Counted from the first letter of the stretch, positions 156 to 20,143 are shown. The stretch is DNA of 25,244 bases from Candidatus Hodarchaeota archaeon (GCA_029856365.1 JAHQWW010000050.1:1-25244), one strand, 5' to 3'. Made by a program: numbers and translations. The notes: generated by a model from the letters alone, not told the origin.

Positions 156-273
156 AACAGCGCACAAACATCAGATCGTTTTGCCCGTACTCGAAGATTT
201 ACACTCCTTAAGCTACCTGACGATAGGACTACTTAATTTCCACACGGTTAGCCCTTGTGCGATTAGTGGCAGC
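156..273. repeat. Dispersed intergenic repeat, copy 1 (full length, ~118 bp)
   Basis: AACAGCGCACAAACATCAGATCG...AAGCTACCTGACGATAGGACTACTTAATTTCCACACGGTTAGCCCTTGTGCGATTAGTGGCAGC. Positions 238-273 are identical to 11250-11285. Confidence 0.9.
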
Positions 274-334
274 TAGTGATTATTTTTATGCTTTATAAGC
301 TCTATCTTCTTGATAACCTTAGATAAGGCTAAAG

Positions 335-868
335 CTACCGAGTTGCTGCAGGCTCTTTCTGCTGGACTTCACACCATTGAGCGACGGCTGCACGGATGAC
401 TCTGTAGTGTCTTCCAGAATACCAAAGGCCCCAGGTGAATTCTGTCGAAATTTCGAAGGTTACATTATTTATAAAGCATGTGCCAAGTATGACGTTCATA
501 TGAAGACCAGAACGGTCTTTAAAGTCCCCCTCTATCCCTGTCAACCTTTGATAGAGACTATCTTCACAAAAAAACACAAGAAAAGTCCCCAGTTCCTTCC
601 ACCAAGGGAATTTCGCGTATTTGGACGTCAGACTCTTCCGAACCTGGGGAAAAAAATTCTCGAAAAGTGAGGCATTAGTAATAGTATCAGGAATTTCAAC
701 AATTGCACAAAGGTACCTCACTAACCAGCGTCGAGGGGTCTTAATAATCGCCACAAAATGAATGTCATTAATGATACCTTCATCATATTCCGTGTAACGA
801 TACTCAGAAAGATTTTCCTTTAGAAGTTCTACTAGTTGGCTATAGTTTATCAAACGTTGTCCTTCCAT
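335..868 (-). CDS. Hypothetical protein (177 aa)
   Basis: ATG start with a purine-rich GAAGGA upstream and globular composition. No recognised motif. Bracketed by repeat copies 1 and 2. Confidence 0.65.
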   Translation of the reverse strand: MEGQRLINYSQLVELLKENLSEYRYTEYDEGIINDIHFVAIIKTPRRWLVRYLCAIVEIPDTITNASLFENFFPQVRKSLTSKYAKFPWWKELGTFLVFFCEDSLYQRLTGIEGDFKDRSGLHMNVILGTCFINNVTFEISTEFTWGLWYSGRHYRVIRAAVAQWCEVQQKEPAATR

Positions 869-1077
869 AAAGTGGATCCTTCATCAACATTACCTGGGGC
901 TCCATTGCTTATAATAGTATACATCTTGGATATTTCATTACAATAGTATAAGCCACCCACAGAAAATTCACACATAACATGCCCAAGACCAGATTGTGAA
1001 AGAATAGCGTACTCCGAAAAACTCGCCCAACATTTCGGAAGTCAACCATAAAACGGTTCCACCAAGACAGATCTGTC

Positions 1078-1199
1078 AACAGCGTACAGACATCAAACCG
1101 AGGGTTCGCACATTGAAGCTGCTGACTCCTGAAGCTACCTGAGGATAGGACTACTCAATTTCTATAGTTTTTTTCTGAAATTTAACCTTTGTGATTAGT
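1078..1199. repeat. Dispersed repeat, copy 2 (full length, right module degenerate)
   Basis: AACAGCGTACAGACATCAAACCG...ATTGAAGCTGCTGACTCCTGAAGCTACCTGAGGATAGGACTACTCAATTTC...TTAACCTTTGTGATTAGT. Confidence 0.9.
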
Positions 1200-1341
1200 C
1201 TTATTCTCACAGATCCAGTATGTAAAAAATTAATACATTATTTATACAAGATAAGTCTAAAAATGTTAAGATTAGAAATAATTAAGAATAGAGAGAATTA
1301 TGTATATTAACTGATGAAATAATTAAAAAGATGATGCGAAG

Positions 1342-1587
1342 ATGACAATCACATTAGAGAATGAGGTTGCTGAGGATTTAATAAAGTTTAAATTACAACA
1401 TATTCAAGAAACAATAAGTTCCATCTTGAATAAATGGAATGAAGATAATATTGAAGATTTTATCAAGAAAGCGAAAACCGGGGAGTTAGCTGATGCGGAA
1501 ATGGATGCTATAACAATCAAACAACTAGCGAAAGACGTGGAAAAGCTAACCACACTCTTAAAAAGTGTGAGGAAGGAGGATTCTTAG
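1342..1587 (+). CDS. Small helical protein, putative antitoxin
   Basis: 81-aa acidic, helical ORF directly upstream of a DUF6516-like frame, in a two-gene toxin-antitoxin-like layout. Confidence 0.65.
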   Translation: MTITLENEVAEDLIKFKLQHIQETISSILNKWNEDNIEDFIKKAKTGELADAEMDAITIKQLAKDVEKLTTLLKSVRKEDS

Positions 1588-1947
1588 ATAGATCCATTAG
1601 TAAAACTTAAAGAAGCACGAAAATTATTAATTGATGCTTTACAAGCTGAAATTATAGATCTGGAACTCGATACATCAATTTATCAACTAAAACTGACCTT
1701 TACCACGGGGGCACAGCTATTTATTCGATATAATGAATTTGAAGAGTATGGATACCAACTAATTATTTCAAAAAAGAAGTACGATACTATCAGATTTGAT
1801 AACTTTGATGATCGTTGGCCTGTCTCCTCTAGACCCCATCATCTTCATCCAAAAGGTAATAAACCCATTAAAGAAAGCCCCATGGTTGGAGTTCCCTCCC
1901 AAGACTTACCCAACTTAATTACACTCATTCTTGAAGAAATATATTGA
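1588..1947 (+). CDS. DUF6516 (TumE-like) putative toxin; ATA start or mutated start codon
   Basis: Not in the ORF track. 119 open codons IDPLVKLKEA...IRFDNFDDRWPVSSRPHHLHPK...LEEIY*, with the R(F/Y)DN...PHHxH motif. SD AGGAGG at 1574-1579, 8 nt before ATA 1588. Confidence 0.65.
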   Translation: MDPLVKLKEARKLLIDALQAEIIDLELDTSIYQLKLTFTTGAQLFIRYNEFEEYGYQLIISKKKYDTIRFDNFDDRWPVSSRPHHLHPKGNKPIKESPMVGVPSQDLPNLITLILEEIY

Positions 1948-2231
1948 CATAGTCAGCTTATCACTTCTCCTTGATTTTTAGAATAAGCATGCAGATATAA
2001 CATCTCCATTAAAGCTCCTGAGCTAAAAGTTGACCTCGCACAGGGAGGTCAAATGAGATCTCATCTAGCTAATTTACAATTTGGAGTTAGATAAACATCT
2101 GAAAATATATGCACTCCATTCGGAAGAGGTTAAAAGCTAAAAATACTAGAATTTCCTTATAATAGCTATAGACAAGCAAATAATGAGAAATTCATCCCCA
2201 TAACAGCTGGTATTGAGTTTCGTGACAAAAT

Positions 2232-2591
2232 ATGATGATCTTTGAAGAATTTAACAGTACATGCCATTTTAAAGTTAGTAAATATTGTCATTATTATTCT
2301 ACCCCTGTTCTGTGCTCCCATGATTATTGTCCTCGAGTTAAATCGGAAATAGGTTTTCAAAAACGTCTGGAACTAGAAGCACGGCATTTTAAATCCCCTT
2401 CTTTTGCTATTGAGGATTTTGATAAGAGGAACTTCCATCGTCCTGTTGTTCATGATAGAGCTTTCAATGAATGGCTTACAAGTATTGATTCTTCACTGTT
2501 TAAATTTGCTAAACGAAAGGAAATAGATGATCTTGTCATTAAGAAATTGAAGGAGAAAAACTGCAAAAATAAATCTAAAAAGGTCTTATAG
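2232..2591 (+). CDS. Hypothetical protein with a Cys/His-rich N-terminus
   Basis: 119-aa ORF. CH..CH..CSHDYCP cluster may bind metal. No family recognised. Confidence 0.45.
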   Translation: MMIFEEFNSTCHFKVSKYCHYYSTPVLCSHDYCPRVKSEIGFQKRLELEARHFKSPSFAIEDFDKRNFHRPVVHDRAFNEWLTSIDSSLFKFAKRKEIDDLVIKKLKEKNCKNKSKKVL

Positions 2592-2826
2592 GTCGATTTC
2601 TTGAAGAGAAAAACTATGGTTCCAAATAATTTCGTCAAACGATTTTCGTGTTGAGAATTATTGAAATTTATTCTTATAAAATATAAATCAACATAAATTG
2701 ACTACCACTCCTCGAAAAATTTCGACATGAGTAGATTTTTTCTCAAATCCGAGGAAAGTTCACGTCCGATGATTGGATATGATAACTAGTCAATCGAGAA
2801 ATGACGTTGATCTCAATTCTTTACTA

Positions 2827-4176
2827 TTATTTTCTTGGAAATAGATTTAATTTGTTTTTTACGAAACTTCTAATGGTAAGAAGTGGATGAAAAGCTGTTG
2901 CTTTTTTAAATTCAATCGGATCTTCGATTGTAAAGTAACTAAACCAAAGTAAAAACCGGAACAATAATACTATGAACATAAGTATTCCAATTAAATTTAA
3001 TGTTGGTTTCTGGTTACCACTTAAAATTTGTAAGGCTAAACCTGTTATGCTAGATCCAATAAACGCACTAATTCCACCAATTAATCCCACCAATGAAATA
3101 TAGGTAGCTCTTTTATTGTTATTTTCAGGAGAAATTTCAGCAATGTCAAAGATCAATGTCTGGATGGCAATTGTGGATCCACCCAAGAAAAAGCCAATGA
3201 TAATATTAGTCACAAGTATCCAAAAGACTTGATTTGTTATTATTGCCACGATTACAAAGAATGGAGGAAGTATTAAGGCCCCACGTGACCCAATAATAAC
3301 TTTCTTTCGCCCAATCCTGTCTGCTAACCATCCACCAATATTTTGACTAAATGCAATCGTTATTCCTGACGAAAATGCTAAAACACCAATTTCAAACCAA
3401 TTGTGAGAAAGACCGAAGGTAACATATGGGAAAAGAGGCCAGCCTGCGCCCCAAGCCAAAGTAAAGATAAAATCTGCAATAAGGAATTTTCTTAAGGGTT
3501 GTGGTAACGGGAACAAGAATTTTCTCAAAAATTCCCTGCTGGGTTTAATAGACTCAACTCTCATTATTGTTTGGCTCTTGGGAAGTAAAATAGTGAGGAA
3601 CATCGCAAAACCATAGCCAAGAGAACTAATAAAAAACGGAAGGGTTAAAGTTCGAATATCTTGGCGAATTGGGTCAATCTGATCCATGAAAAATGTAACT
3701 AATAATAGCACAAAATTACCAATGAATGTTATGAAGGAACTTATACGACCTAATACTGTACCTCTAGATTTAGGTGTTGTGAAATCAGCAAGGTAAGCAG
3801 ACCAAGCTGGTCCAACCATCACAAGACCCAAAATGGTTTGAAATATTAATAAAAAAAGGACAATTAAGGGGGTGGTGGAAAATGGTATCAAGAAAGAAAC
3901 GAGAAATAAAACAAAATTTCCCCCAAATAAAAACAATCTTCTATCAAATCTATCAGCTAGGTAACCCCAAATGGGATTAAACAGAGCAGCACCTAATTGG
4001 CGAAAAGAGGTTAAAAAACCTTGAACAATACCTGTAGCGCCAAGCATAATCGCTAAAAATTGGTATAAATTGTCAAATAACACAGATCCAATATAATTAC
4101 ATAGTCCAAGAACATAAGTCATTGGAGGGAATCGATTACCTGTGTGATTATCTTCTATAAATTCTGTTTTGCTCAT
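2827..4176 (-). CDS. MFS transporter
   Basis: About 12 hydrophobic segments. MFS motif A occurs in both halves (GYLADRFDRR; GWLADRIGRK). Confidence 0.92.
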   Translation of the reverse strand: MSKTEFIEDNHTGNRFPPMTYVLGLCNYIGSVLFDNLYQFLAIMLGATGIVQGFLTSFRQLGAALFNPIWGYLADRFDRRLFLFGGNFVLFLVSFLIPFSTTPLIVLFLLIFQTILGLVMVGPAWSAYLADFTTPKSRGTVLGRISSFITFIGNFVLLLVTFFMDQIDPIRQDIRTLTLPFFISSLGYGFAMFLTILLPKSQTIMRVESIKPSREFLRKFLFPLPQPLRKFLIADFIFTLAWGAGWPLFPYVTFGLSHNWFEIGVLAFSSGITIAFSQNIGGWLADRIGRKKVIIGSRGALILPPFFVIVAIITNQVFWILVTNIIIGFFLGGSTIAIQTLIFDIAEISPENNNKRATYISLVGLIGGISAFIGSSITGLALQILSGNQKPTLNLIGILMFIVLLFRFLLWFSYFTIEDPIEFKKATAFHPLLTIRSFVKNKLNLFPRK

Positions 4177-4210
4177 ATGAGTAATCGGAAGGAATTTGGT
4201 AATTTTTTAA

Positions 4211-4283
4211 AAGCTATCTGACGGTAGTTCCGCAAAATTCCCACAAGCTTCTAGAAAATTAACCCTGGTGCGATTAGTGGCAG
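4211..4283. repeat. Dispersed repeat, copy 3 (core plus right module)
   Basis: AAGCTATCTGACGGTAG...AATTCCCACA...TTAACCCTGGTGCGATTAGTGGCAG, 35 nt upstream of the MFS start. Confidence 0.8.
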
Positions 4284-4905: not shown

Positions 4906-5211
4906 TTACTCTTGGTAGGAGTCTTCATCCATCTTGACCATCTCGTCCCAGGGGACTACGTAATATGTTTTCTTAGGATGAGGATTAGAAATAGTTTTGG
5001 CCCGAACTTCACCCTGATTAAATAATATCTTTAAATGATAATGGACTTTGCCACGGGACCAATTGAGTCTTTGGGAAATTTCATATTCAGTTAGTCCAGG
5101 GTGGTCCTCAACACAAAACAATAAATGTCTCCGTTGCTTTTCACCCTCAAGTCGACGCTTCATCTGGGAGACTTTAGTAGCGCTGTCTGTATTTCGCATA
5201 GGTAATAACAC
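4906..5211 (-). CDS. Winged helix-turn-helix regulator (ArsR/MarR-like)
   Basis: HPGLTEYEISQRLNWSRGKVHYHLKIL..GEV pattern. Confidence 0.8.
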   Translation of the reverse strand: MLLPMRNTDSATKVSQMKRRLEGEKQRRHLLFCVEDHPGLTEYEISQRLNWSRGKVHYHLKILFNQGEVRAKTISNPHPKKTYYVVPWDEMVKMDEDSYQE

Positions 5212-5376
5212 ATTCGCCTTTGTCTTTTATTCTGTTCAAATATAATAAAAAGGGGACAACTTATAAAGTTATCGCTAACAAACTACTTATTTAATAGAAA
5301 AAACAGAAAATCTTGCTGGAATAATATTCAATAACGATTTATATTAGTTTGAAAAGAAAAAACTTCATAAATTCAC

Positions 5377-5410
5377 GAAGTCAATGACCCCTGAAGCCAC
5401 CTGACGATAG
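5377..5410. repeat. Dispersed repeat, copy 4 (core only)
   Basis: GAAGTCAATGACCCCTGAAGCCACCTGACGATAG. The last 19 nt are identical to the copy 6 core. Confidence 0.8.
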
Positions 5411-5478
5411 ATTTTAAGGATCTAAGATGAAAGAATCACAAACAAACCTTTAACTTTTTATATAGATAGTGAAGAAGA

Positions 5479-6033
5479 ATGAAGAGTAAGTTAAAAAAAT
5501 CGCTAAAAGACAAACAATTCGTTCTGGACGAAATAACACGAATATCTGAAAGGGAAGCCCAAGCGAAGGTTGATGAAATTTCCTTTGGTTTGATTTTGGC
5601 TTTTTTCTTGCATGAAACTGGGCCAATTCCATTGATGGTGACTCCTGAATCATTATCATCATTTGAATTAGCACTCCATGCACTTGCAGATAGGTCATTT
5701 TCCATATTTGGGTTTGTAACAAATCCTGATGAGACAAAAAATGCTTCATTCGGATTCCAATTTCAAAAGGAAAAATGTACCGTTTTTGGATATGATTTCG
5801 CCATACTCAATTCTGAATCACCTGATAATAAAGATAGCTTTATACTTTGTTTTTTGGTTCGGCCGCCACGGGGAAATTTAGAGATCCTATCTCTTTTTTA
5901 CCACGAACTATTAGAGTACTACCAAAAAATAAGAGGATTAATGACTATTAAAGCCGATCAAGAATTAGTACTCAAAGAAATGCACAATGTTCGTTTATTT
6001 TATGCTAAAGCTATGCTTGCTCTAGTAAAGTAG
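5479..6033 (+). CDS. Putative longin/uDENN-like (NPR2/folliculin-type N-terminal fold) protein
   Basis: LILAFFLHETGPIPL..TP matches the hhhxxFxxxxGP..P start of uDENN/longin domains. It is followed by beta-strands (TVFGYDFAI, SFILCFLV) and terminal helices. The ORF itself is secure; the fold call is by eye. Confidence 0.55.
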   Translation: MKSKLKKSLKDKQFVLDEITRISEREAQAKVDEISFGLILAFFLHETGPIPLMVTPESLSSFELALHALADRSFSIFGFVTNPDETKNASFGFQFQKEKCTVFGYDFAILNSESPDNKDSFILCFLVRPPRGNLEILSLFYHELLEYYQKIRGLMTIKADQELVLKEMHNVRLFYAKAMLALVK

Positions 6034-6043
6034 AGTTGTGGGG

Positions 6044-6154
6044 ATGATTCGTGATTTGATACGAGATCAAGTAGATATCAAACTCATTCAGAAAGCCATG
6101 GAGAATATTCGTAACTTTTACACGTATTTTTTGATTCAAAATGAAAAGCAATGA
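6044..6154 (+). pseudogene. C-terminal remnant of a paralogue of the 5479..6033 protein
   Basis: IRDLIRDQVDIKLIQKAMENIRNFY aligns without gaps to IRGLMTIKADQELVLKEMHNVRLFY (11/25 identical by hand count). Confidence 0.65.
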
Positions 6155-6566
6155 TGCTGGGTGAAAAGGAGGTACCAAAAGATGGGTGATAAGAAAGGAG
6201 AAGAAAATCTAAGATGAAAAAATCAACAATAGATGAAAACGATCTATTAAAGAAATTTTGTGATAATGCTTTTGGGAGTGATTTTACCTGGATCCCAGGG
6301 CTGAAGGAAGTGAAAACGGATGATATGGCTATTCCAAAGGAAAATTGTATTGTAATGATTGGACGAAAGTGGGGGGAATCAAATACCCTTCCCCTTTCCC
6401 TTTTTCTAAAGAATTCCTTGAATCTGCATCCACAAAATAAACAATATTGTCGCTTTTCCCACCCTATTTGTGAAATTAAGGTGATACAGAACTCACAGGT
6501 ATGGCGTTGACATCTAGAACACTGGATAAGATAGGAATCTCTTCCACAGATCAGACAACTAGTCAT
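6084..6566 (-). CDS. 8-Cys FYVE/PHD-like zinc-finger protein, copy A (conserved part ~6390-6566)
   Basis: Start at ATG 6566 (MTSCLIC) behind AGAAGGA. Pattern C-x2-C-x8-C-x2-C-x4-C-x2-C-x14-C-x2-C. Paralogue at 20863..21423. Confidence 0.7.
   Translation of the reverse strand: MTSCLICGRDSYLIQCSRCQRHTCEFCITLISQIGWEKRQYCLFCGCRFKEFFRKRERGRVFDSPHFRPIITIQFSFGIAISSVFTSFSPGIQVKSLPKALSQNFFNRSFSSIVDFFILDFLLLSYHPSFGTSFSPSIIAFHFESKNTCKSYEYSPWLSE
6214..6510 (+). pseudogene. Probably a 3'-truncated hypothetical gene (only about the first 58 codons native)
   Basis: SD-like AAGGAG and an ATG. After ~6390 the frame runs into the antisense of the zinc-finger paralogue. Confidence 0.35.
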
Positions 6567-6800
6567 ATTTTTCCTTCTTTGATAGATCCTGCATTTCTTT
6601 AAATGAAATGGTAGTTCATTCGGGAGCAACCACACAAAAAATCACCAGCGTTCAGGTATATACTCCACATGAGCCCATTTACATTAACAACAATTCTCTG
6701 CTTTTTACACTAAAGCTATTTTCGAAAGTACGAACATTTCAATTTAGGTGCTAGTTTCCCTAATTCACAAATTTGTCTATAAACATTTTATATTCTTCTA

Positions 6801-7229: not shown

Positions 7230-7301
7230 TTTAATCCTTCTATGATTTTTTCTTGTTACAATTCAGTTATTCATAAATTTCTATATGTCAATTTTGGACA
7301 A

Positions 7302-8842: not shown

Positions 8843-8882
8843 ATTGTATCCTTCAAAAAAAAGGGAAATGTTATATCTTCTG

Positions 8883-9200: not shown

Positions 9201-9205
9201 TTATT

Positions 9206-9892: not shown

Positions 9893-9993
9893 TTTTTTTT
9901 CACCATAAATTGTTTTAACTTTTCTAAGCTAATTTACAGATAAAAAATCATTAATATGATTCATTCTACGAAAAATCCAAATAAATATATATG

Positions 9994-11249: not shown

Positions 11250-11285
11250 TTCCACACGGTTAGCCCTTGTGCGATTAGTGGCAGC
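11250..11285. repeat. Dispersed repeat, copy 5 (right module only)
   Basis: 36/36 identical to 238-273. A further degenerate tail fragment (ATTAGTGTCAGCAGTG) lies at 11334-11349. Confidence 0.9.
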
Positions 11286-11374: not shown

Positions 11375-13729
11375 CTAATTACTGGAAATTTCAGTTTCAT
11401 TCTCAATTTTTGGCGATTCAATCAAAGTGTGGACAGTTTTAAATATAAAAATGAGCGAAATAATACATAAGTCACCAATGAGTAATAAACCACCCAAGAA
11501 AAAAAGGGATAATGTAACAGCCGGTTCAAACTGGTTTGACATTGCTGTATTATCCCATGGAATGGTTTGGATGAAATATAAGGTATTTCTAGCCAGAATT
11601 AATTGATTAATATAGATTACAATTATTGCAAGAAGGAAATGTCGTGCTATCAAGGGTTTGGTTGACTGATGCTTCATATCAAGATTAATTAGACTCGGAA
11701 TAACTCCTAAGAATATTAAATTAATAATAAAGATAAGAAATATGTATATTAGGTAATAACTCTCTTCTATAATTGAATCTTGAATTATCAACGCAAAGAT
11801 TAAAGCAGGAATAATAAATACTAATAAAGGCTCTAGATCTGCAAAATGAAATTTTGATTTATAGCTCTCATCAGATTTCCATTCCCGATTTATCAGAAAA
11901 TCTTCTTTGAGGGCAGAAGAAAGAAAAAATAGGAGACCAATTCCAAAGAGGCATAAAAACTGAAATTCGGGAAAAATAAAAAAAATGTATAGGGGTATTG
12001 GGAAAATTGTTGTTTGTGGGCCATGTTCGATTAACCAAAGTATTCCTTTCAGCTGAGGAAGGATATTAACACTTATAGCCGCTGCGAGCATGTAAAGACA
12101 CCCAAACTTAGTTACATTTGGAGATCCCCTTTTAATAAGTATCATCACTGACCCTACAATTAACATGATTAAAGATGCCATTTCTAATAATTGAAACGCT
12201 ATTGAGGAAATGTCAGAAAAATAATTGGTTGGATCCTCAAGGATTATCACGAAAACATTTTGATATACAAATGAATGATCATCCTCAATTTTTTTTCCTA
12301 AAAAGTCCTTTGACCTAGTTCCCCCTGTAATAACTATTTTATCTCTCTGATTGACTTTGAGTCCATACTCTAAATGTGCTTGCCCCCCCCCATCATCATT
12401 CTCACTCCCACCAAGAAGGGTACTCCACAAGAGGGAACCAACCGAAGAAAATTTAACCAAGAAGATGTCAAAGTCATTGATGTCTCCAAATTTTTCTGAA
12501 TGATATGCATTTTTTACTGGGAAATCATTTGAATGTGTATCTCCAATCATGATAAGATTATCGGAATTATCAACATCAGCAGCAATACCCGCTAGTCCAT
12601 CTCCCCTCGATCCTCCAATGAACGTGCTCCATTCTAATTGGCCATTCTTAGTGATTTTTGTGATGAACACATCAGATTCATAACCCTGATGGGATTGTGT
12701 GTAAGTAGTGTTGTGAATAAGGAAATCATTGGAATCAGTTACTCCTGTTACGAAAAGATTATCATGGCTATCTACAGTAACAGAACTACCAATATCAATA
12801 TCCCTTCCACCGATAAATGAGCTGAATATCAAAGAGCCATTTGGAGTAAATTTAGTAATGAATGCATCGCTAAGCTCCAAAGTGGAATCGAAAGCGTTCT
12901 TAAGTGGCATCCCAGATCCCCAGACTCGCCCCGTGACAATGATATTGTTTTCACTATCTACAGAAATGTCATTGATATCATTTTTACCATCAGGTCCCCC
13001 AAAAAAGGTGCTCCATATTAACGAACCATCAGAAGAGAATTTTGAAATAAACCCTTTTGAGTTCGCTACTCTTAGAATCGAATCGAAAGCATTTTGGACA
13101 GGGAAATCTACAGAATTAGTGCTACCAGCTACAATAATATTATCTTCACTGTCTATAGCAACAGATGTACATTTATCCTCTTCTGATCCACCAACATATA
13201 TACTCCACAGTAATTGACCATTTGGATTAAATTTCATCAGGATTATAACTTCTTTCTCGAGATTTGACGTATTTATCGCTTTCTGAGTTGGAAAATCAAG
13301 ACTTTCTGTATATCCTGCTATAACAACGTTATTCTGAGAATCTGTGACACAACTCATACCTTGAGATCTTCCCCTTCCATGGTGTACAGTACTCCATAAG
13401 ATGGAACCTCTTTGGGAGATTTTTGTTACATATAAGCCCCCCCAACCCATATCTTCCTCAGATAAAGGTTGAGCATTAATATCTGGAAAATCGTGAGACC
13501 AGGTGGCCCCAGTAATTATCATATTGTTATCTTGATCATAAGCTAAATCATTACTATACTCACCGCTACTACCATCAACGTATTGAAAAAAAACAATATA
13601 ATCATATGTGGCTGGATTTTTAAATGTGATCCCATGACCGATCATATTTAGACCAGAATTCACCATAGCTAAGCAAATTATCACAAGAAAAGCGTATGAT
13701 AATAAAGAATGATTTTTTGGTATTCTCAT
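11375..13729 (-). CDS. SBBP-repeat (beta-propeller) extracellular domain fused to a C-terminal multi-pass membrane domain
   Basis: N-terminal signal/TM segment, about 7 repeats of D..NI.V.G.T.S.DFP...D.F..KF...G.L.WST..GG, then about 7 TM helices. ATG 13729 preferred over TTG 13738. Confidence 0.88.
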   Translation of the reverse strand: MRIPKNHSLLSYAFLVIICLAMVNSGLNMIGHGITFKNPATYDYIVFFQYVDGSSGEYSNDLAYDQDNNMIITGATWSHDFPDINAQPLSEEDMGWGGLYVTKISQRGSILWSTVHHGRGRSQGMSCVTDSQNNVVIAGYTESLDFPTQKAINTSNLEKEVIILMKFNPNGQLLWSIYVGGSEEDKCTSVAIDSEDNIIVAGSTNSVDFPVQNAFDSILRVANSKGFISKFSSDGSLIWSTFFGGPDGKNDINDISVDSENNIIVTGRVWGSGMPLKNAFDSTLELSDAFITKFTPNGSLIFSSFIGGRDIDIGSSVTVDSHDNLFVTGVTDSNDFLIHNTTYTQSHQGYESDVFITKITKNGQLEWSTFIGGSRGDGLAGIAADVDNSDNLIMIGDTHSNDFPVKNAYHSEKFGDINDFDIFLVKFSSVGSLLWSTLLGGSENDDGGGQAHLEYGLKVNQRDKIVITGGTRSKDFLGKKIEDDHSFVYQNVFVIILEDPTNYFSDISSIAFQLLEMASLIMLIVGSVMILIKRGSPNVTKFGCLYMLAAAISVNILPQLKGILWLIEHGPQTTIFPIPLYIFFIFPEFQFLCLFGIGLLFFLSSALKEDFLINREWKSDESYKSKFHFADLEPLLVFIIPALIFALIIQDSIIEESYYLIYIFLIFIINLIFLGVIPSLINLDMKHQSTKPLIARHFLLAIIVIYINQLILARNTLYFIQTIPWDNTAMSNQFEPAVTLSLFFLGGLLLIGDLCIISLIFIFKTVHTLIESPKIENETEISSN

Positions 13730-13841
13730 TTTCCCCAAACCTATGAAATCAGATACGCAATGAAATTATTCTTAAAAGTAGTGATTCTCCAACTTAAAAT
13801 CCCATTTGTACAATAAAATCTAATTATCCCGAAAATCAAAG

Positions 13842-13945
13842 AACAGCGGACAGACATCAGACCGAAAGCCCACACATTGAAGCTGGTGACTCTTGAAGCC
13901 ACCTGACGATAGCTTTTGTAAAGAATACTTAATTTCCACATGGTT
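13842..13945. repeat. Dispersed repeat, copy 6 (left module, core and part of right module)
   Basis: AACAGCGGACAGACATCAGACCGAAAGCCCACACATTGAAGCTGGTGACTCTTGAAGCCACCTGACGATAG...TACTTAATTTCCACATGGTT. Confidence 0.92.
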
Positions 13946-13962
13946 GAAATTTAAAAATCATT

Positions 13963-14642
13963 TCACACTGAAAGATCAGAAAGAAACTTCTTGTAACTCT
14001 GTACCATATTCAAGTAAGAGTGGTTTGCAATAGTTCCTTGCTCATGTTTTTCAGTCTGATTAATGAACCACTTCACCCATTTTTGGGTTTCAGGAGGGTT
14101 TGGATCTAGTTGTTTGGTTTTGAATATCAACTCTTGCTTTGCAGCCATAAGATTTGATGTATCAGGCGAATCAACTAGCTGCTTAGATAGGGTCTCCAGT
14201 CTCACTTCTAAATCAAGTATCGGAGAACCAACAACGTGATCAGATACTTCGACTTCGTTGGAGAATTGTTCTTTATTTTTCCCACTATTGTTCACATTTT
14301 GTGTTTTTTGCTTAGAAATGAATTGAATGAGGGTATCAATTAAGAGATAGAGGCCATAAGGAATAAAAAAAAGACTGACAAAAAACATTAACAGGGGTGG
14401 TCCGGGCCCTTCAGGAACTGTTATGTAATACGAGACGAATGAGATTGTAGTATAATTCCTGCAATTATAAAGAATATAGATATCACCCCAAGTGTTTTTA
14501 GTCTCTCAGACCTATAATAACATCGTTTTGAACAAAATAATTTGTCTAAACCATTTTGTTGAAACCCGTCTCCATTGATTGATGTTCCGCATTAATTACA
14601 AATCTTTTCATCATCCCCAGATCTATTTGATTCTTCGTCCAT
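13963..14642 (-). pseudogene. TRASH/YHS-type zinc finger plus two TM helices; one nonsense codon and one frameshift
   Basis: From ATG 14642: MDEESNRSGDDEKICN*CGTS...KLFCSKRCYY...LGVISIFFIIAGIIL. A 1-nt frameshift near 14450 leads into TISFVSYY...PLLMFFVSLFF (the 13963..14388 ORF). TAA at 14594-14592. Confidence 0.72.
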
Positions 14643-15015
14643 ATGAATTCAACCACTCTATTCATATTCCCAAATAGAAAAAAAGCTGGGAGTAACAAGC
14701 AGTTAATGGGTTTAAAAATCTTTTTAGTTTTAAATACTTCTTTTAAAGAAGTTCTGAAAGAAAAAAATAGATTCTTTCTTTGCGATCTTCTTCTTCTTGT
14801 TTCATATAATCTTTTAACAGGGAATCACACCCACCCCCCCCCACTCCCTCTCACGCATTCGGGGATAAGCATTTTGAACACCTCTCACTCTGGTATATAC
14901 TTTTCTTAAAAAGCGAAAGAAAAAAGCAGGCAGCAATAAATAAAGGAAAATTCTCATAAAATAGATAATTTCTAAATCGATGTTAATCATATTAATGTTA
15001 AGAAGGCAATAGTTA

Positions 15016-16584
15016 ATGGGAATAAAGAAGTTTCCAAGTATCTTTAATGATGTTATGGGACCAATTATGAGAGGCCCATCGAGTTCTCACTGTGCAGCTT
15101 CTGTTCGGATTGGGAAGATGGCAAGGGACTTAATGGGCTGCAATATTCAAGAGGTTTTGATAGAATTTGATACAAAAGGTTCGTTAGCGACAACACATGC
15201 CAATCAAGGATCTGATATGGGACTCTATGGAGGTTTTCTTGGGTGGGACACCTATGATGAAAAATTAGTGGGTTCTGCGAAAGCTATCGAAGAAGCAGGC
15301 ATTAAAATAAAGATTGCGATTAAAGAGTTGAACACAAAACATCCTAATACTTACAAATTGACACTAAAAAATAATGAAGAAACCCACGAAATGATAGCGA
15401 TCTCCACTGGGGGGGGGATGATCGAAATAGTAGAAATTGATCAAGTTAAGGTTTCAATGGTTGGAGATTATTATGAAACTTTGGTTTATACAAACGATGA
15501 CGAACTTCTCAGTTTTTTACAGGAAACATTACCTACCAATGAGATTTTTACCTGTGAGGGAACAGACACTAGTTTCATTGAAATAAAAACGCAACAACGT
15601 TTGGATGAAGGGCTACTCATTCACATAAAAAATGAATTCAACATATCAGATATAAAAGAATTAAAACCGGTTTTACCAGTGCTATCCCGAAAAGAGATAA
15701 AAGTACCATTCCTTACATGCGAAGAAATGCTCAAATATAACGAGAATAAGAATCTAGACCTCTGGGAATTAGCTGTTCATTATGAAAGTGTCAGGGGTAA
15801 TATATCTGCAGATGAAGTTTTCAACCAAATGCAAAACATTGTCAAAATTATGGAAAAATCCATTTCGGATGGAATTAAAGGAACTGATTACCATGATAGG
15901 ATTTTAGGGTACCAATCAGGGTTTTTTAAGACGCAAATGGAAAAAAAGGGGTTACTCAATGGGGGTATCCTAAATCACATGATCTGTTATATATCCGCAA
16001 TGATGGAGATAAAGAGTTCAATGGGAGTAATCGTCGCTGCTCCTACTGCAGGAGCTTGTGGGGTCATTCCTGGCACTTTGATGGGTGCAGCTACAGCTAT
16101 GAAACTGTCTTCAAATGATATCACAAGAGCAATGCTTGCTGCAGGAATAATAGGAATATTTATTGTTAATCAATCAACTTTTTCAGCAGAGCTCGGAGGA
16201 TGCCAGGCTGAATGTGGTTCAGCCTCAGGAATGGCCGCTGCAGGACTTGTAACTTTAATGAATGGTAATATAAAACAAGCGATCGATGCAGCTTCAATGG
16301 CATTGCAAAATGTATTTGGAATGGTATGCGATCCTGTAGCTAACAGAGTAGAGGTTCCTTGTTTAGGTAAAAATGTTATGGCGGCTAGTAATGCACTCTC
16401 TTGTGCGAATATGACCTTAGCCAATTTTGACGTAGTTATACCTTTGGGAGAAGTAATCGAAGCAATGGATAAAGTTGGTAGAAGTATTCCACATGAATTA
16501 AGATGTACGGCTTTAGGAGGATTATCTGTAACTAAAACATCAAAATTATTGGAGGAAAAACTTAGAAACCTTGAAGATTCTTGA
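15016..16584 (+). CDS. Fe-S-dependent L-serine ammonia-lyase, fused beta and alpha subunits
   Basis: GPIMRGPSSSH, HPNT, STGGG (beta part). AAPTAGACG, GGCQAECG, CDPVANRVEVPC (alpha part, Fe-S Cys ligands). Confidence 0.93.
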   Translation: MGIKKFPSIFNDVMGPIMRGPSSSHCAASVRIGKMARDLMGCNIQEVLIEFDTKGSLATTHANQGSDMGLYGGFLGWDTYDEKLVGSAKAIEEAGIKIKIAIKELNTKHPNTYKLTLKNNEETHEMIAISTGGGMIEIVEIDQVKVSMVGDYYETLVYTNDDELLSFLQETLPTNEIFTCEGTDTSFIEIKTQQRLDEGLLIHIKNEFNISDIKELKPVLPVLSRKEIKVPFLTCEEMLKYNENKNLDLWELAVHYESVRGNISADEVFNQMQNIVKIMEKSISDGIKGTDYHDRILGYQSGFFKTQMEKKGLLNGGILNHMICYISAMMEIKSSMGVIVAAPTAGACGVIPGTLMGAATAMKLSSNDITRAMLAAGIIGIFIVNQSTFSAELGGCQAECGSASGMAAAGLVTLMNGNIKQAIDAASMALQNVFGMVCDPVANRVEVPCLGKNVMAASNALSCANMTLANFDVVIPLGEVIEAMDKVGRSIPHELRCTALGGLSVTKTSKLLEEKLRNLEDS

Positions 16585-17574
16585 TCAGATCTCGACTTCA
16601 ATTCCTTTTCTCATTTTACATGCTTTGTCATATACTAATTGGGCAATTGCTGCATCTTGAATCGCCAGCCCTACCGATTTGAAGAGTGTAATTTCCGATT
16701 CATTTTCTCTTCCCGCCTTTTTTCCAGTAATAATTTCACCTAATTCAGCATGTATGTGCTCTTTTGTTATAACACCCTCATTTATAGGAATAATAAGATC
16801 ACCAGCTTCATCAAGACAGGCATTCATTTCATCACAAACTACTTTTGATTTTTTAATTGTCTCTGTATCTATTTCACGTGTTTTTGGAGTGTAAGCACCA
16901 ATGGCTGATATGTGTGTTCCAGATTCGAGCCATTCTCCTCGAAACACAGGAATAGGGGAGGTTGTGGCGGTTAAAACAATATCTGATCCTTTCACTACAT
17001 CATGAGGTGATTCGACAACTTTAATACTTGGAATATGGAGCTTTTTACTCATTTTCTTTGCAAAATCTTCAGCTACATCCTTTCTAATATCGTACACCTT
17101 ACACAGCCGAATATCAGGACGAGCTTCATAAACTGCCCATAATTGTGTAGCTCCTTGAACTCCAGTCCCAAATAAACCAATAGTGTGAGCATCTTCTTTT
17201 GCTAGGTACTGCACTGCGCATCCTGAGACAGCACCCGTCCTCATTGCGGTCAAATAGCTCCCATCCATGATTGATATAACATCCCCCGTCTCAGGATTCT
17301 GTAAGAGGACTTTTCCAAGGATTGTAGGTAAGTTATATTTTTCTGGATTTTGTTCAAACACAGTGACAATCTTAACCGCCAATGATCCCATTTGAGGTAA
17401 AAAAGCAGGCATGTAAAGACTTATTCCACTTTCTGCAGAGATTAATATACGTTGGGGAAGAATGGCAGATCCATCTGATAGTTCTCTAAAAGCATTCTCC
17501 ATAGTAGTAATAGTTTCTTTCATATTAAGGACAAATTCGACATCTGTTCTCGATAGAATTAAGACATTACTCAT
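16585..17574 (-). CDS. Ornithine cyclodeaminase / mu-crystallin family protein (archaeal-type alanine dehydrogenase candidate)
   Basis: YMPA, VKIVTV, LTAMRTGA, GTGVQG, ITLFKSVGLAIQD. Confidence 0.9.
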   Translation of the reverse strand: MSNVLILSRTDVEFVLNMKETITTMENAFRELSDGSAILPQRILISAESGISLYMPAFLPQMGSLAVKIVTVFEQNPEKYNLPTILGKVLLQNPETGDVISIMDGSYLTAMRTGAVSGCAVQYLAKEDAHTIGLFGTGVQGATQLWAVYEARPDIRLCKVYDIRKDVAEDFAKKMSKKLHIPSIKVVESPHDVVKGSDIVLTATTSPIPVFRGEWLESGTHISAIGAYTPKTREIDTETIKKSKVVCDEMNACLDEAGDLIIPINEGVITKEHIHAELGEIITGKKAGRENESEITLFKSVGLAIQDAAIAQLVYDKACKMRKGIEVEI

Positions 17575-17585
17575 TTATTTTCCCC

Positions 17586-18164
17586 TTAACCGCTTTCAGT
17601 GAGAAGCGCTAATCTCAGTTTGATAATAAGGATTTTCACTAAGGACCAAAAAAAGGTAGATATTTTTTTCATTACTTTTTGTAAAAGCGACTTCAAGACA
17701 GCATCTAAGGTCTGGAGATCATCCACAGCCATCTCAAAAGAGTCAACGCCAAACTCCTGAGCGAGCGATAGGCCTTCAGTCTGAGGAACAACCTCAACTT
17801 CATCATGAAGGCCAACAAAAGCAATCGGAACAGTAGGTTCAGGGATATGTCTTCTAAATTCATAAAAAAGGCCAATTGTAGACTCAACAAAACTATACTT
17901 ACTTTTGGAAAAAGCAAAGACCGCGGCAGACGCGCCTTGAAAATAAGTTGGACAGCTGGACGCGAAACAGAATTGGGTTGAGATAACTATAAGAAGGAGT
18001 CTAATTATGTTATCATCTATTTTGATATTTTTGACTTGATAGAAATCGAGACCAATGATCCTTTTAGTGGGTTTAGATATTTCTTCAGTATAAGCCGGCA
18101 GTAATTTGGTTAATATATCATCTGGAGAACATAGAACACAGATTTTGGCTCTCCATCTTGCCAC
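17586..18164 (-). CDS. Rab/Ras-like small GTPase homologue with degenerate G-boxes
   Basis: Fold landmarks IGLDF, YFQGASAAVFAFS, VPIAFVG, EGLSLAQEFG..FE. GTG 18164 start chosen because it lies the same distance from GAATGTGGAGA as the paralogue's ATG 116. Confidence 0.8.
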   Translation of the reverse strand: MARWRAKICVLCSPDDILTKLLPAYTEEISKPTKRIIGLDFYQVKNIKIDDNIIRLLLIVISTQFCFASSCPTYFQGASAAVFAFSKSKYSFVESTIGLFYEFRRHIPEPTVPIAFVGLHDEVEVVPQTEGLSLAQEFGVDSFEMAVDDLQTLDAVLKSLLQKVMKKISTFFWSLVKILIIKLRLALLTESG

Positions 18165-18207
18165 TGAAGTCTCCACATTCCACTGCTTATCGATTCCGTT
18201 GTGAACC

Positions 18208-18246
18208 ACAGCGTACAGACATCAGACCGAATGCCCTCAAACTGAA
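18208..18246. repeat. Dispersed repeat, copy 7 (left module only)
   Basis: ACAGCGTACAGACATCAGACCGAATGCCCTCAAACTGAA. Confidence 0.85.
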
Positions 18247-18258
18247 TTTGGAAACTTA

Positions 18259-18381
18259 TCATCTTTTAAGCTTAGATTTCTTTTGGAATTGGGCAATCTG
18301 GCGGAGAATTAGGCTTAAAATGAGGAGGAGAAGAAGAAAAACCGGAGTATTTTCACTCAGAATGAGATCTCTAATTGTCAT
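18259..18381 (-). CDS. 40-aa single-pass membrane peptide with a basic tail
   Basis: Below the ORF-track cutoff. MTIRDLILSENTPVFLLLLLILSLILRQIAQFQKKSKLKR followed by TGA TAA, with GAAGGA upstream. Fills the gap between repeat copies 8 and 7. Confidence 0.5.
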   Translation of the reverse strand: MTIRDLILSENTPVFLLLLLILSLILRQIAQFQKKSKLKR

Positions 18382-18403
18382 CAAAGATCCTTCATAATAT
18401 GCT

Positions 18404-18490
18404 AATAGGGGACAGACACCAGATCAAATGCTCTCACATTGAAGCTGCTGACTCCTGAAGCTATCTGACGATAGTGCCGCTTAATTTTCA
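18404..18490. repeat. Dispersed repeat, copy 8 (left module plus core)
   Basis: GGACAGACACCAGATCAAATGCTCTCACATTGAAGCTGCTGACTCCTGAAGCTATCTGACGATAGTGCCGCTTAATTTTCA. Confidence 0.9.
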
Positions 18491-18553
18491 AGTCGAATTG
18501 ATCAGCTTTCACAGAGATCCCCTTCATTAACAATTCAATTAAAATCTCTTAGA

Positions 18554-19723
18554 TTACAAATCATCCCAAAATTTTCGTCTTTCTTTTTCCTCTAACAGAG
18601 CTAATCTTCGAAATTTAAATCCAGGATATGCGGTCATCAAAGGATTAACTTGTTCAGTTAAGCGAAGGTATCGCCGAATACTTTCAGCAGAACGAAATTC
18701 CGATGTTAACACCTCAACAGTTTTTTGATCAGTTTTTAGCTCTAATAGAATATCAAAAGAGCTGATATAAGTCTTTAATAAAGCGTCAGCTATAAGTAGA
18801 ACAATAATAGCTAATATACAAAAAATAATGTTCGCCTCCTGGATGATCATGGTATCAGCAGACAAGGAAAATATTAAAATACCGCTCAATGTAAGGTAAA
18901 GAGTGAATAGAAAGTTATGGATAGAATACAAAAGATAAAAAGCCCGCCTCTTCTCTAATGATAAACGACAGATTTCCCTGACACAGAAAACTAAACTTTG
19001 ATCTCTTTCAGCTTGAAATTGGGCAATTTTGGAGTAACCAATAAATACAATGTTGTCTACCTCGGCACCAATTGCGAGACGACCATAGTAATTTGGTTGC
19101 AAATCTGCCAATCTAATCTTAACATCTGAAAAGCCAAGGGTTCGGCCCCAGTCCTTCAGCTCCTCTCGAAAATTTTCCTCTGGAGATCGATCAGCAAGAG
19201 ATGAAACCCGATTATTGTAGCCATCAAGATAATTCAGGAAGGTATTTGAGATTAAGATTATACTAAGGAAGGGGATAATAGCTCCAAGAAGTTGTAATCC
19301 ATTACTAATCAAATCTGAAGTACCACCATTCTCGGTACCCGAAAAGAGAATAGAAAAAATGAATAACAAAAAAATCAAGGGAAAAAGCGCAGCCTGAATT
19401 CTAAAGCCAAAACTCTCAATAAGACGATATAGATCTTGGAAGACTGACCCTGTAATCCGAAATTGTTTTAGCTGTTTGTAAGTAGAATGAGCTAATACGA
19501 TTGCAGCGGAAAATAAAATCAGACCAACCGAAATAAGAAGAAGAAATACTAAGAATTGATCTAAAAATATGACAGAGAGCGTTATTATTGCAGTAATTAC
19601 AACAGGGACTAAAATAAGAATAAAACCAAGGAGAACTGATAAATTCTTTTCAATCAAAAAGGGAGCTAATTCTGGGTCTCTGACCCTCTTATGACTACTA
19701 ATATTAATTTGATAGTCTTGCAT
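18554..19723 (-). CDS. Multi-pass membrane protein, degenerate M48 (HtpX/Ste24-like) peptidase homologue
   Basis: About 6 TM helices. VREICRL, ELKTD and YPGFKFRR sit where M48 has AHExxH, ExxAD and HPxxxxR. Confidence 0.6.
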   Translation of the reverse strand: MQDYQINISSHKRVRDPELAPFLIEKNLSVLLGFILILVPVVITAIITLSVIFLDQFLVFLLLISVGLILFSAAIVLAHSTYKQLKQFRITGSVFQDLYRLIESFGFRIQAALFPLIFLLFIFSILFSGTENGGTSDLISNGLQLLGAIIPFLSIILISNTFLNYLDGYNNRVSSLADRSPEENFREELKDWGRTLGFSDVKIRLADLQPNYYGRLAIGAEVDNIVFIGYSKIAQFQAERDQSLVFCVREICRLSLEKRRAFYLLYSIHNFLFTLYLTLSGILIFSLSADTMIIQEANIIFCILAIIVLLIADALLKTYISSFDILLELKTDQKTVEVLTSEFRSAESIRRYLRLTEQVNPLMTAYPGFKFRRLALLEEKERRKFWDDL

Positions 19724-19741
19724 TCCAGTTCAACCCTCTCA

Positions 19742-19882
19742 TTATTTTGGTATCTCTGCAGGTGATACTAAAATTTGGTGCAACGTGGTCATGGTAGAAT
19801 TGAAATATATTACTATCAATAAGACAATGCCAATAACGACTAAATTCCCTATTTGACAAAGGTGAATTCCCAACCTTCTCAT
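19742..19882 (-). CDS. 46-aa single-TM peptide, possibly co-transcribed with 18554..19723
   Basis: MRRLGIHLCQIGNLVVIGIVLLIVIYFNSTMTTLHQILVSPAEIPK*. Stop 18 nt before the next ATG; purine-rich sequence upstream. Confidence 0.4.
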   Translation of the reverse strand: MRRLGIHLCQIGNLVVIGIVLLIVIYFNSTMTTLHQILVSPAEIPK

Positions 19883-20044
19883 TGGACACACCCTTCACAG
19901 ACCCTTCAGACATTTTTGAAATGAAAATGATGATTTCACAAAACACAAAGTTGGTTATTATATTTTTTCACTATTCGCCAAACTTGAATTCCTGAAAATA
20001 CAAAAACAGTATTTAAATAAATAACCGTTTGTACTCTAATTGGA

Positions 20045-20143
20045 GGATAGACATCAGATCGAATGCTCTGAAATTGAAGCTGCTGACTTCTGAAGCCATT
20101 TACCTGACGATATGACTACTTAATTTCCACACAGGTAGCCTTT
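20045..20143. repeat. Dispersed repeat, copy 9 (near full length)
   Basis: GGATAGACATCAGATCGAATGCTCTGAAATTGAAGCTGCTGACTTCTGAAGCCATTTACCTGACGATATGACTACTTAATTTCCACACAGGTAGCC. Confidence 0.9.

Follow-up and report, generated by a model that had tools for sequence, protein, structure and literature searches.

In this Heimdall-group Asgard archaeon and its genus, spare copies of the 23S rRNA tail join blocks of accessory genes behind the rRNA gene. The stretch of DNA analysed (25,244 nucleotides, hereafter the window) is part of a long array of 1-3-gene accessory blocks, which exceeds 70 kb in this population and is bounded by the 23S gene on one side and by a conserved chromosomal flank on the other. 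Such an array was probably built by serial insertion of blocks at the 3′ end of the 23S gene, with replacement of the gene tail, followed by reshuffling between the copies. Our searches found no published description of a 23S-tail-joined array of this kind.

The intergenic repeat is the 23S rRNA 3′ end and its trailer

An nhmmer search with a 155-position profile of the full unit revealed nine repeat copies in the window, all matching on the + strand (Table 1). The first-pass annotation had placed nine copies in one orientation, and the profile coordinates agree with it to within about 20 nt. On the minus strand, the repeat sequence, then regarded as uncharacterised, corresponds to the final ~31 nt of the 23S rRNA gene followed by a 3′ trailer of ~110-125 nt; some copies hold about 300 nt of 23S instead. 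Window positions 1-273 are 100% identical to G000:C184:1-273 (G000 being the window's own assembly), and in that contig ~300 nt more of 23S adjoin the tail. This segment (G000:C184:257-566, minus strand) matches positions 2721-2973 of LSU_rRNA_archaea with 220-227 bits and leads uninterrupted into the repeat copy common to window 1-273. In G004:C44, moreover, a contiguous 23S gene (model 1423-2973) has a homologous trailer directly behind it and a second copy 3.7 kb further. The real 23S gene is absent from the G000 assembly, and cmscan against Rfam gave no match on the whole window or on a 2-kb locus; only a short slice yielded the LSU match. An Rfam match had been named beforehand as evidence against a cassette array, and formally this is one; it explains the site, and does not abolish the cassette layout.

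The distal block of the repeat also occurs, in sense orientation, ~110 nt upstream of the 23S 5′ end (G016:C9 and G001:C38), and the full length of the trailer is complementary to the 23S leader. Within G001 the leader-trailer duplex reached -103.5 kcal/mol, versus -56.1±6.0 for shuffled sequences (z -7.9), and the copy 1 trailer of the window paired with the G001 leader at -81.2 kcal/mol, versus -46.6±5.6 (z -6.2). The trailer is thus the 3′ arm of a long 23S processing helix, pairing with the 23S leader. Because the partner of this arm lies in the leader, the repeat has no attC-like fold of its own: RNAalifold on 16 full copies gave no consensus structure on either strand, and the first-pass annotation had been right that it is not an attC.

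Table 1. Repeat copies and cargo of the window, in order of position (E, E-value of the profile match).
Feature	Position	Strand	Description
Ras-like GTPase N-terminus	1..116	minus	38 codons; follows trailer copy 1, runs off contig end
Copy 1	137..273	minus	complete unit, 23S tail and whole trailer; match 137-268, E 4e-32
Copy 1 tail	~243-273	minus	minus-strand start GCTGCCACTAATCGC; trailer runs to TTTCGGAG
177-aa ORF	335..868	minus	no Pfam family; cassette between copies 1 and 2
Copy 2	1068..1199	minus	full trailer with A/T hairpin insertion, degenerate tail; match 1068-1196, E 1e-26
Cassette between copies 2 and 3	1342..4176		two small + strand ORFs, of 81 aa (weak MJ0235-like match) and 119 aa, and MFS transporter
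MFS transporter	2827-4176	minus	
Copy 3	4211..4283	minus	23S tail (junction CTG|CCAC) and proximal trailer only; match 4211-4279, E 2.5e-6
Blocks between copies 3 and 5	4906..10968	minus	interrupted by copy 4
wHTH regulator	4906-5211	minus	
Copy 4	5376..5414	minus	39-nt piece from mid-trailer; E 1.7e-6
Degenerate Ras-like gene	6084-6635	minus	
NikR-CbiO/Q/PDGLE/CbiM operon	6801-9892	minus	
PEMT/ICMT-like methyltransferase	10357-10968	minus	
Copy 5	11247..11285	minus	31 nt of 23S tail, junction GCTG|CCAC, and ~8 nt of trailer
SBBP beta-propeller protein	11375..13738	minus	787 aa; cassette between copies 5 and 6
Copy 6	13823..13956	minus	full trailer with hairpin insertion, ~6-10 nt of 23S left; E 1.5e-31
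Block between copies 6 and 7	13963..18209	both	minus: ORF141, ornithine cyclodeaminase, Ras-like GTPase (17586-18209); plus: 88-aa ORF, serine dehydratase
Copy 7	18204..18256	minus	distal trailer piece, directly upstream of Ras-like gene 17586-18209; E 5e-9
Copy 8	18387..18490	minus	trailer without tail; match 18387-18488, E 1e-24
389-aa and 80-aa ORFs	18554..19946	minus	no Pfam family; cassette between copies 8 and 9
Copy 9	20041..20156	minus	trailer and ~13 nt of 23S tail; E 5e-27
Array continuation toward 23S gene	20275..25244		NosD/beta-helix gene (plus), GTPase remnants, unknown ORFs
VapB-PIN pair	21858-22474	plus	

The repeat has a G+C content of 43%, versus 35% for the window, and its sequence is conserved at 70-98% identity, many copies being fragments from different parts of the unit. 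Copy 5, for instance, gave a profile match at 11247-11280 with E 5e-3 and an exact 25-nt match in a separate repeat search, which recovered the family as well. Across G000, 31 copies (E<1e-3) were found on 7 of the 204 contigs, summing to about 90 kb or 2% of 4.24 Mb, and they are co-oriented within every contig carrying them. Many dispersed copies of ~120-140 nt with sharp ends and a single orientation could also suggest regional spread of a strand-biased non-autonomous transposable element (MITE or IS200/IS605-derived), an option raised by the first-pass annotation. This is extremely unlikely, since the copies are confined to a single locus downstream of the 23S gene with none elsewhere in the 4.2 Mb, the window repeat search returned no inverted-repeat pair matching the unit ends, and the unit is collinear with the native 23S end and trailer. 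A search of the array contigs for TnpB-type and serine-recombinase genes, the two kinds covered, also found neither.

Repeat orientation is fixed and gene orientation is random

In G007:C8, 27 co-oriented copies extend over 48 kb and end at a real 23S gene, which covers model positions 2545-2987 before the contig end cuts off the rest. The layout in G004 is the same, with the array abutting a real 23S gene. The intact gene marks one end of the array: it terminates the G007:C8 array and precedes the copies in G004:C44. Across six arrays, repeat orientation is 74:1, and the median repeat spacing is 1.25 kb, with a single ORF in 32 of 68 intervals. Of the ORFs (simple calls of at least 70 aa in the same six arrays), 73 share the direction of the 23S gene and 74 run against it.

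The statement that each copy lies 5′ of a minus-strand gene therefore holds loosely in the window, but fails across the six arrays. Fixed repeat orientation combined with random gene orientation argues against a leader or promoter role, and contradicts the shared leader RNA that had been proposed. More generally, a functional RNA or regulatory module (leader, promoter or terminator) under selection at each flanking gene is very unlikely: while most copies in the window do lie upstream of minus-strand genes, and the T-rich end of the unit could serve as an archaeal terminator, many copies are pieces of different unit parts, a consensus fold is lacking on both strands, and the sequence is already explained as an rRNA tail plus one arm of a processing stem.

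The array cargo, of which Table 1 lists the window's share, includes toxin-antitoxin pairs, a DNA methyltransferase, an AAA_14/DUF4143 ATPase and a Schlafen/AlbA_2 protein. In G004 this last protein and unknowns make up the unit directly after the live 23S gene. The edge of the G011 array carries ordinary enzymes (alcohol dehydrogenase, peptidases). Past the window end, the next repeat copy in longer contigs of this population follows after ~6 kb; at the other end, window 1-231 may represent either an assembly join or a genuine recombination junction.

Gene content of the array differs between species, and assemblies of one population diverge at the repeat

The distal flank is syntenic between G000:C41 and G011:C3 at 77-81% identity, and the arrays have few blocks in common; among species having both flanks in common, array content is almost completely different. 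One of the conserved elements is copy 3, whose equally partial counterpart adjoins the orthologous MFS gene in G011:C3. Within G000, a 404-nt stretch covering copy 6 and the beginning of ORF141 next to it has a counterpart of 93% identity at G000:C184:6793-7196.

Three other assemblies of the population are 99.99-100% identical to window 232-10868 (or 232-1142), and part from it within copy 1, continuing with a different trailer variant and different genes (BPL_N-like, HEAT, PIN). The block after the long 23S fragment likewise has alternative neighbours. Breakpoints between strains had been anticipated at the repeat, and assemblies of one population do diverge inside or at it; as this is where assemblies are least reliable, the breakpoint reading calls for caution. 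Between G007 and G011, a 160-aa cassette gene that 5 of the genus's 22 genomes carry reaches 92% identity, compared with 67-71% for flank genes, an excess similarity that may hint at mobility.

The retained lengths of 23S fall into classes. In four species, 22 copies retain 26-31 nt, with a junction mostly at CTG|CCAC that adjoins unrelated DNA, while five displaced copies in four genomes retain about 326 nt, a length also scored for the two intact 23S genes. The 2721-2973 fragment of 23S was seen in three further genomes. The junctions spread over about 4 nt in the short class and about 17 nt in the long class, and more classes occur at 12-25 nt. Such clustered but inexact junctions are more readily explained by break repair or decay than by a precise recombinase.

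An alternative origin of the array is local segmental duplication and decay, in which the region downstream of the 23S gene (trailer plus Ras-like GTPase) was multiplied by unequal crossing-over with no dedicated capture, the copies then decaying while ordinary rearrangement brought unrelated genes in between them. The homology between copies 7 and 1 reaches into the GTPase 5′ region, indicating that trailer and GTPase were duplicated together; a common GTPase leader motif comes after several trailers, and the arrays hold a family of 21 Ras-like paralogues. In G007, a copy 28.7 kb from the 23S gene matches the functional trailer at 98% identity, which would fit gene conversion. Nevertheless, we consider duplication an unlikely origin of the array as a whole. 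Most junctions put one 23S position beside unrelated DNA, and tandem duplication copies junctions rather than creating them. Only about 5 of the 59 Ras-family genes of G000 lie in array contigs, and the cargo is typical accessory material. Nor does duplication account for the near-complete difference in content between species with common flanks, or for a cassette gene far more similar between species than the flank genes.

A proposed model of serial insertion at the 23S 3′ end

No tyrosine recombinase, serine recombinase or TnpB-type gene was found in the array contigs of G000, G007, G011, G010 and G004, and no integrase gene inside array units or at the array edge. Matches to PF00589 (tyrosine recombinase) were confined to non-array contigs (G000:C92 and others in four relatives). 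These results bear on a classical integron or integrase-less attC cluster (CALIN), for which the co-oriented repeats between mostly single-gene blocks and the toxin-antitoxin cassettes would speak. With neither IntI nor another tyrosine recombinase nearby, and with a repeat that is rRNA-derived, sequence-conserved and devoid of an attC-like self-fold, this assignment has virtually no chance of being correct and is rejected, even though co-oriented sites separate small cassettes in the integron manner. The more general proposal of an integron-like layout, with the repeat as the joint of exchangeable blocks, is upheld by the clustering at one locus, the uniform orientation and the turnover of content.

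The identity of the repeat, its anchoring at 23S and the differences between species and between assemblies of one population are observations; for the serial insertion favoured here, we infer the direction and mode of insertion and the enzyme as follows. Gene blocks would insert preferentially ~30 nt short of the 23S 3′ end, or less frequently about 265-285 nt before it. The incoming block would bring, or be selected for bringing, a working replacement tail and trailer, displacing the older tail and trailer downstream as a spare. Any spare could later act as an insertion target or a homologous-recombination partner, and this reuse would lead to insertions, deletions, duplications and reshuffling all along the array. 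The catalyst would not be array-encoded, but would act in trans, or host break repair and homologous recombination might suffice. In G007, no age gradient away from the 23S gene was detected (Spearman -0.19, p 0.36), which together with the distant 98% identical copy makes insertion solely beside the live gene too simple an account.

A bolder version is conceivable, and we hold it only tentatively: a dedicated capture platform of the Heimdall group (an 'rRNA-tail integron'), with the 23S 3′ end and processing-stem arm as attachment site, served by an unrecognised trans-acting recombinase or site-directed nuclease. Such a platform might exchange single-gene cassettes between species, because its site is anchored in a highly conserved cell sequence.

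If the model is true, the end of an rRNA gene is the landing pad of a large, fast-changing accessory array in the archaeal group nearest to eukaryotes, and a third kind of cassette platform, with no known enzyme, stands beside integrons and tRNA-targeted islands. With a 23S tail that hardly differs among Asgard species, it would also offer a concrete route for genes to pass from one species to another. In practice, such arrays break assemblies beside rRNA genes, and are missed by IntegronFinder-type tools and routine Rfam scans.

Comparison with known systems

In archaea, the leader and trailer of an rRNA pair into a processing stem that contains bulge-helix-bulge sites. As in these stems, the trailer portion of the repeat is complementary to the 23S leader at full length; unlike in ordinary processing stems, dozens of displaced and partly decayed 3′ arms occur here without a partner leader of their own.

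Integrons and CALINs have reportedly been found in Archaea by Ghaly et al. in 2022. Sedentary chromosomal integrons and CALINs resemble the present array in their length, their small and mostly single-gene cassettes between co-oriented sites, their toxin-antitoxin cassettes on either strand and their variable content among close relatives. Unlike in integrons, IntI, attI and Pc are lacking here, and the site is sequence-conserved, non-self-folding and derived from an rRNA gene end.

SCC-type composite islands occupy the 3′ end of rlmH (orfX) in staphylococci, and IMEX arrays form at dif in a host-Xer-dependent manner. Both show serial insertion at one conserved chromosomal end-site, units marked by direct repeats, and many units that lack a recombinase and depend on one acting in trans, as would hold here. 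In SCC and IMEX the enzyme is known (Ccr, XerCD), and the site is short and exact, whereas the repeated block here is long and no recombinase was found.

Tandem genomic islands at tRNA and tmRNA 3′ ends arise by Campbell-type integration and carry a duplicated gene end. The present array differs in that the target, of about 140-150 nt, comprises the 23S tail and the entire 3′ processing-stem arm, the units mostly hold one to three genes, no integrase was found, and the junctions are clustered rather than exact. On the proposed model, both target the 3′ end of a structural RNA gene, and in both a direct repeat remains of the former end, here the 3′ part of the 23S gene with the intact gene at the array end; incoming DNA would restore the gene end, and repeated use would lead to co-oriented arrays at a single locus.

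Identification of the repeat as the 3′ end of the 23S rRNA gene

A repeat search of the window showed the ~120-nt unit to be tiled by overlapping repeat families. When the whole assembly (G000; 4.24 Mb in 204 contigs) was searched with the archaeal LSU model, a single match was obtained, on a second contig (C184), and cmscan confirmed this match at 219.7 bits on a 441-nt slice. The 23S fragment passes unbroken into a repeat copy, and C184:1-273 is 100% identical to positions 1-273 of the window. Read on the minus strand, the unit opens with the last ~31 nt of the 23S rRNA, GCTGCCACTAATCGCACAAGGGCTAACCGTGTGG, and continues for another ~110-125 nt, ending in ...GTCTGTACGCTGTT(n8-10)TTTTCGGRG. 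Moreover, in the related genome G004 a contiguous 23S gene on contig C44 (model 1423-2973) is directly followed by a homologous trailer, with a second copy 3.7 kb further on. These data show that the repeat is the 3′ end of the 23S rRNA together with its trailer, and that it is anchored at the 23S gene.

An Rfam scan of the entire window at E ≤ 1 gave no match. Because cmscan was also silent on a 2-kb C184 locus that contains the LSU fragment, the negative outcome is a false one: a truncated, internal LSU match went unreported, as easily happens with such rRNA fragments in routine Rfam scans. A tRNA scan of the whole window found none.

Distribution of the repeat and anchoring of the arrays

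An nhmmer profile of 155 positions, built from 37 full copies from four genomes of the genus, recovered in the window exactly the nine co-oriented copies reported in the first-pass annotation, all on the plus strand (E-values of 4e-32 to 5e-3). In the whole assembly, 31 copies were found at E < 1e-3, confined to seven contigs (C49, which is the window, C184, C41, C83, C44, C20 and C95) that together make up ~2% of its length. Orientation was strictly uniform inside each of these contigs, and the G+C content of the copies was 43%, versus 35% for their surroundings. This copy number is a lower bound, since the profile missed a further 23S fragment on C41, consisting of the sarcin-ricin loop region and a CCACTAATCGC tail.

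Of 21 further genomes in the genus, 8 were positive for the repeat in a BLAST search with one copy as query; of 19 genomes from other genera of the class, none was. These counts are too low because trailers evolve fast. Where present, the repeat was always clustered and co-oriented. One contig of genome G007 (C8) carried 27 copies across 48 kb, and its right end proved to be a real 23S gene (model 2545-2987, 328 bits, cut by the contig end), from which it follows that the array starts directly behind the live rRNA gene. This 23S gene also contains a ~320-nt insert relative to that of G004, and this insert resembles an archaeal rRNA intron or expansion segment.

In genome G011, 17 copies lay between 218 and 253 kb of contig C3. 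The region beyond the first of these is syntenic with that beyond the last copy on G000:C41 (77-81% identity), and the two arrays have only a handful of blocks in common. In longer contigs from the population of the window itself, such as an 83.7-kb ENA contig, the array extends on both sides of the window.

The trailer as one arm of the processing stem

RNAalifold yielded no consensus structure for the repeat on either strand, in agreement with the initial statement that it does not fold like attC, and both the attC-like and the structured-RNA readings were dropped. Its most conserved block, AACAGCGTACAGACATCAGAYCGA on the plus strand, occurs in sense orientation ~110 nt upstream of the 23S 5′ end in two related genomes (G016:C9 and G001:C38), and the trailer therefore carries its complement. 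Duplex prediction for the G001 leader gave –103.5 kcal/mol with a G001 trailer (shuffled trailers –56.1 ± 6.0; z = –7.9) and –81.2 kcal/mol with the trailer of window copy 1 (shuffled trailers –46.6 ± 5.6; z = –6.2). As the pairing begins next to the 23S and reaches as far as the TTTCGGAG end, the unit corresponds to the 23S tail plus the entire 3′ arm of the leader-trailer helix, and it lacks a fold of its own because it holds only one arm of this processing stem. Optional A/T hairpins occur at two positions inside the unit.

A 16S-ITS-23S operon on G007:C9 was rejected as the leader source for the G007:C8 trailer, its duplex (–81) being no better than that of shuffles (–74 ± 6.5). This operon may belong to another organism (G007 is listed at 8% contamination) or represent a second operon type. 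Separately, G001:C57 bears a second, divergent full-length 23S gene, possibly another organism's. Behind this gene, its trailer block CAGTTACACAGGTTGCGTATAATA occurs twice as a direct repeat with a spacing of ~130 nt, and the complement of the block lies in the leader of the gene. Trailer duplication may thus have occurred in another lineage as well.

Junctions between the 23S tail and the cassettes

The length of 23S sequence retained fell into classes: 26-31 nt in 22 copies from four species, ~326 nt in five displaced copies from four genomes (two intact 23S genes score an equal length), and 12-25 nt in smaller groups, while ~30 copies had lost the tail altogether. The fragment 2721-2973 was also present in three more genomes. 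In the short class the junction was mostly CTG|CCAC, with unrelated DNA on the cassette side of different copies. Since tandem duplication only copies junctions, this argues that joining happened on many separate occasions at a single favoured position. Junctions were spread over ~4 nt in the short class and ~17 nt in the long class, an inexactness that a precise recombinase explains no better than break-and-repair or subsequent erosion.

Layout and cargo of the arrays

Across six arrays, the repeats were oriented 74:1, and of the ORFs (simple calls of at least 70 aa), 73 ran in the direction of the 23S gene and 74 against it. The proposal that each copy precedes a minus-strand gene consequently holds as a local feature of the window and not across the arrays. 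Copies were spaced at a median of 1.25 kb, and 32 of 68 intervals contained a single ORF.

The cargo of the window and its neighbours included degenerate Ras-like GTPases, an MFS transporter, a wHTH regulator, a NikR-CbiMNQO operon, a PEMT/ICMT-like enzyme, an SBBP propeller protein, a serine dehydratase, an ornithine cyclodeaminase, NosD/beta-helix proteins, VapB-PIN and UPF0175/DUF3368 pairs, a Dam-like methyltransferase, an AAA_14/DUF4143 ATPase and many ORFs without family. Given the complete nickel or cobalt uptake operon inside the array, this cargo is not all small or "selfish". The VapB-PIN pair recurs in the arrays of three species next to differing neighbours, and its G000:C20 and G001:C52 versions are 88% identical across 659 nt. 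Two GTPase gene pieces on both sides of a NosD/beta-helix gene, in permuted order and partly overlapping it, have the appearance of GTPase cassettes that a later insertion disrupted. With only ~5 of 59 Ras-family matches located in array contigs, the arrays were rejected as a driver of Ras-GTPase expansion.

Coordinates of array and 23S features (positions without prefix are in the window; G, genome; C, contig)
Feature	Position	Strand	Remark
23S fragment (LSU match)	G000:C184:257-566	−	model positions 2721-2973
Repeat copy adjoining this fragment	G000:C184:137-273
Further 23S fragment	G000:C41:9040-9300
Insert in real 23S gene	G007:C8:54309-54628		~40 nt upstream of model position 2721
Second 23S with two trailer copies (G001:C57)	L055:3230-3440
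ORF177 (177 aa)	335-868	−	between copies 1 and 2
Interval between copies 7 and 8	18259-18381		only a ~40-aa minus-strand ORF
Nickel or cobalt uptake operon	6801-9892		NikR, CbiM/PDGLE/CbiQ/CbiO
NosD/beta-helix gene	20275-21234	+
GTPase gene pieces	20373-20469; 21189-21578		76-81% identical to parts of 6403-6694; 90% to a G011:C3 GTPase gene
VapB-PIN pair	21858-22474
VapB-PIN pair	G000:C20:3778-4426
VapB-PIN pair	G001:C52:6366-7024
VapB-PIN pair	G011:C3, ~233963-234621

Turnover between species and within the population

The gene directly behind the functional trailer differs by species, being a zinc-ribbon gene in G007 and a Schlafen/AlbA_2 gene in G004, with a GTPase gene in the G000 copy. 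A 160-aa cassette gene, which only 5 of 22 genomes have and which lies outside the array in G000, is 92% identical between G007 and G011, compared with 67-71% for the flank genes of the same pair.

Within the population, two contigs, one from JGI 3300028897 and one from ENA ERZ27275860, are 99.99-100% identical to window positions 232-10868 (or 232-1142) and part from the window inside copy 1, past a shared 42 nt (the tail plus 10 nt), where they continue into another trailer variant, behind which lie BPL_N-like and HEAT-repeat genes. An ERZ27275891 contig, compared by its gene listing, matches in gene order, with a PIN gene further on. In ENA ERZ27275847, the block behind the long C184 23S fragment joins a NosD gene rather than tail, trailer and GTPase, at a breakpoint ~11 nt from the usual one. 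These comparisons show array turnover and bear out the predicted breakpoints at the repeat, although the differences between assemblies sit at repeats, where assemblies are weakest.

The window and C184 have their first 273 nt (GTPase start, trailer and 23S tail) in common, after which C184 runs into more 23S and the window into ORF177. Either the assembly graph forks here, at the native 23S end, or the junctions are genuine products of recombination. Positions 1-231 of the window could be an assembly join or, equally, an excised-circle or duplication junction between copy 1 and the native trailer.

Mode of spread

The suggested search for a recombinase next to the clusters found none: the array contigs of five genomes contained no tyrosine recombinase (Phage_integrase), serine recombinase (Resolvase) or TnpB gene, and at the G011 array edge ordinary enzymes were found instead of a recombinase. 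In G007, copies farther from the live 23S gene showed no drop in identity (rho = –0.19, p = 0.36), and one lying 28.7 kb away was 98% identical to the functional trailer. Either insertion is not confined to the gene-proximal end, or gene conversion operates. In some cases a copy was duplicated along with the adjoining GTPase gene. A tree of 53 copies grouped them partly by genome and partly intermixed, the sequences being too short for it to carry weight.

Blocks probably enter at the preferred point in the 23S tail, bringing a replacement tail and trailer, which selection to keep the 23S end functional would require, and displacing the old ones. The resulting 140-150-nt spares would then offer matching sequence throughout the array, by which blocks could be deleted, duplicated, exchanged and perhaps inserted anew at any place in it. 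We infer both this mode of entry and the enzyme that would serve it.

Comparison with known systems

We found no description of 23S-tail arrays in the literature, including PMC8813620, the main paper on Heimdallarchaeum mobile elements. In layout, they come closest to sedentary chromosomal integrons and CALINs, and membership of the integrons fails on the lack of both IntI and an attC fold. Whereas islands of the tRNA type are defined by an integrase and the 23S-tail array is without one, it is these tandem islands at tRNA and tmRNA gene ends that the array most closely resembles in logic.
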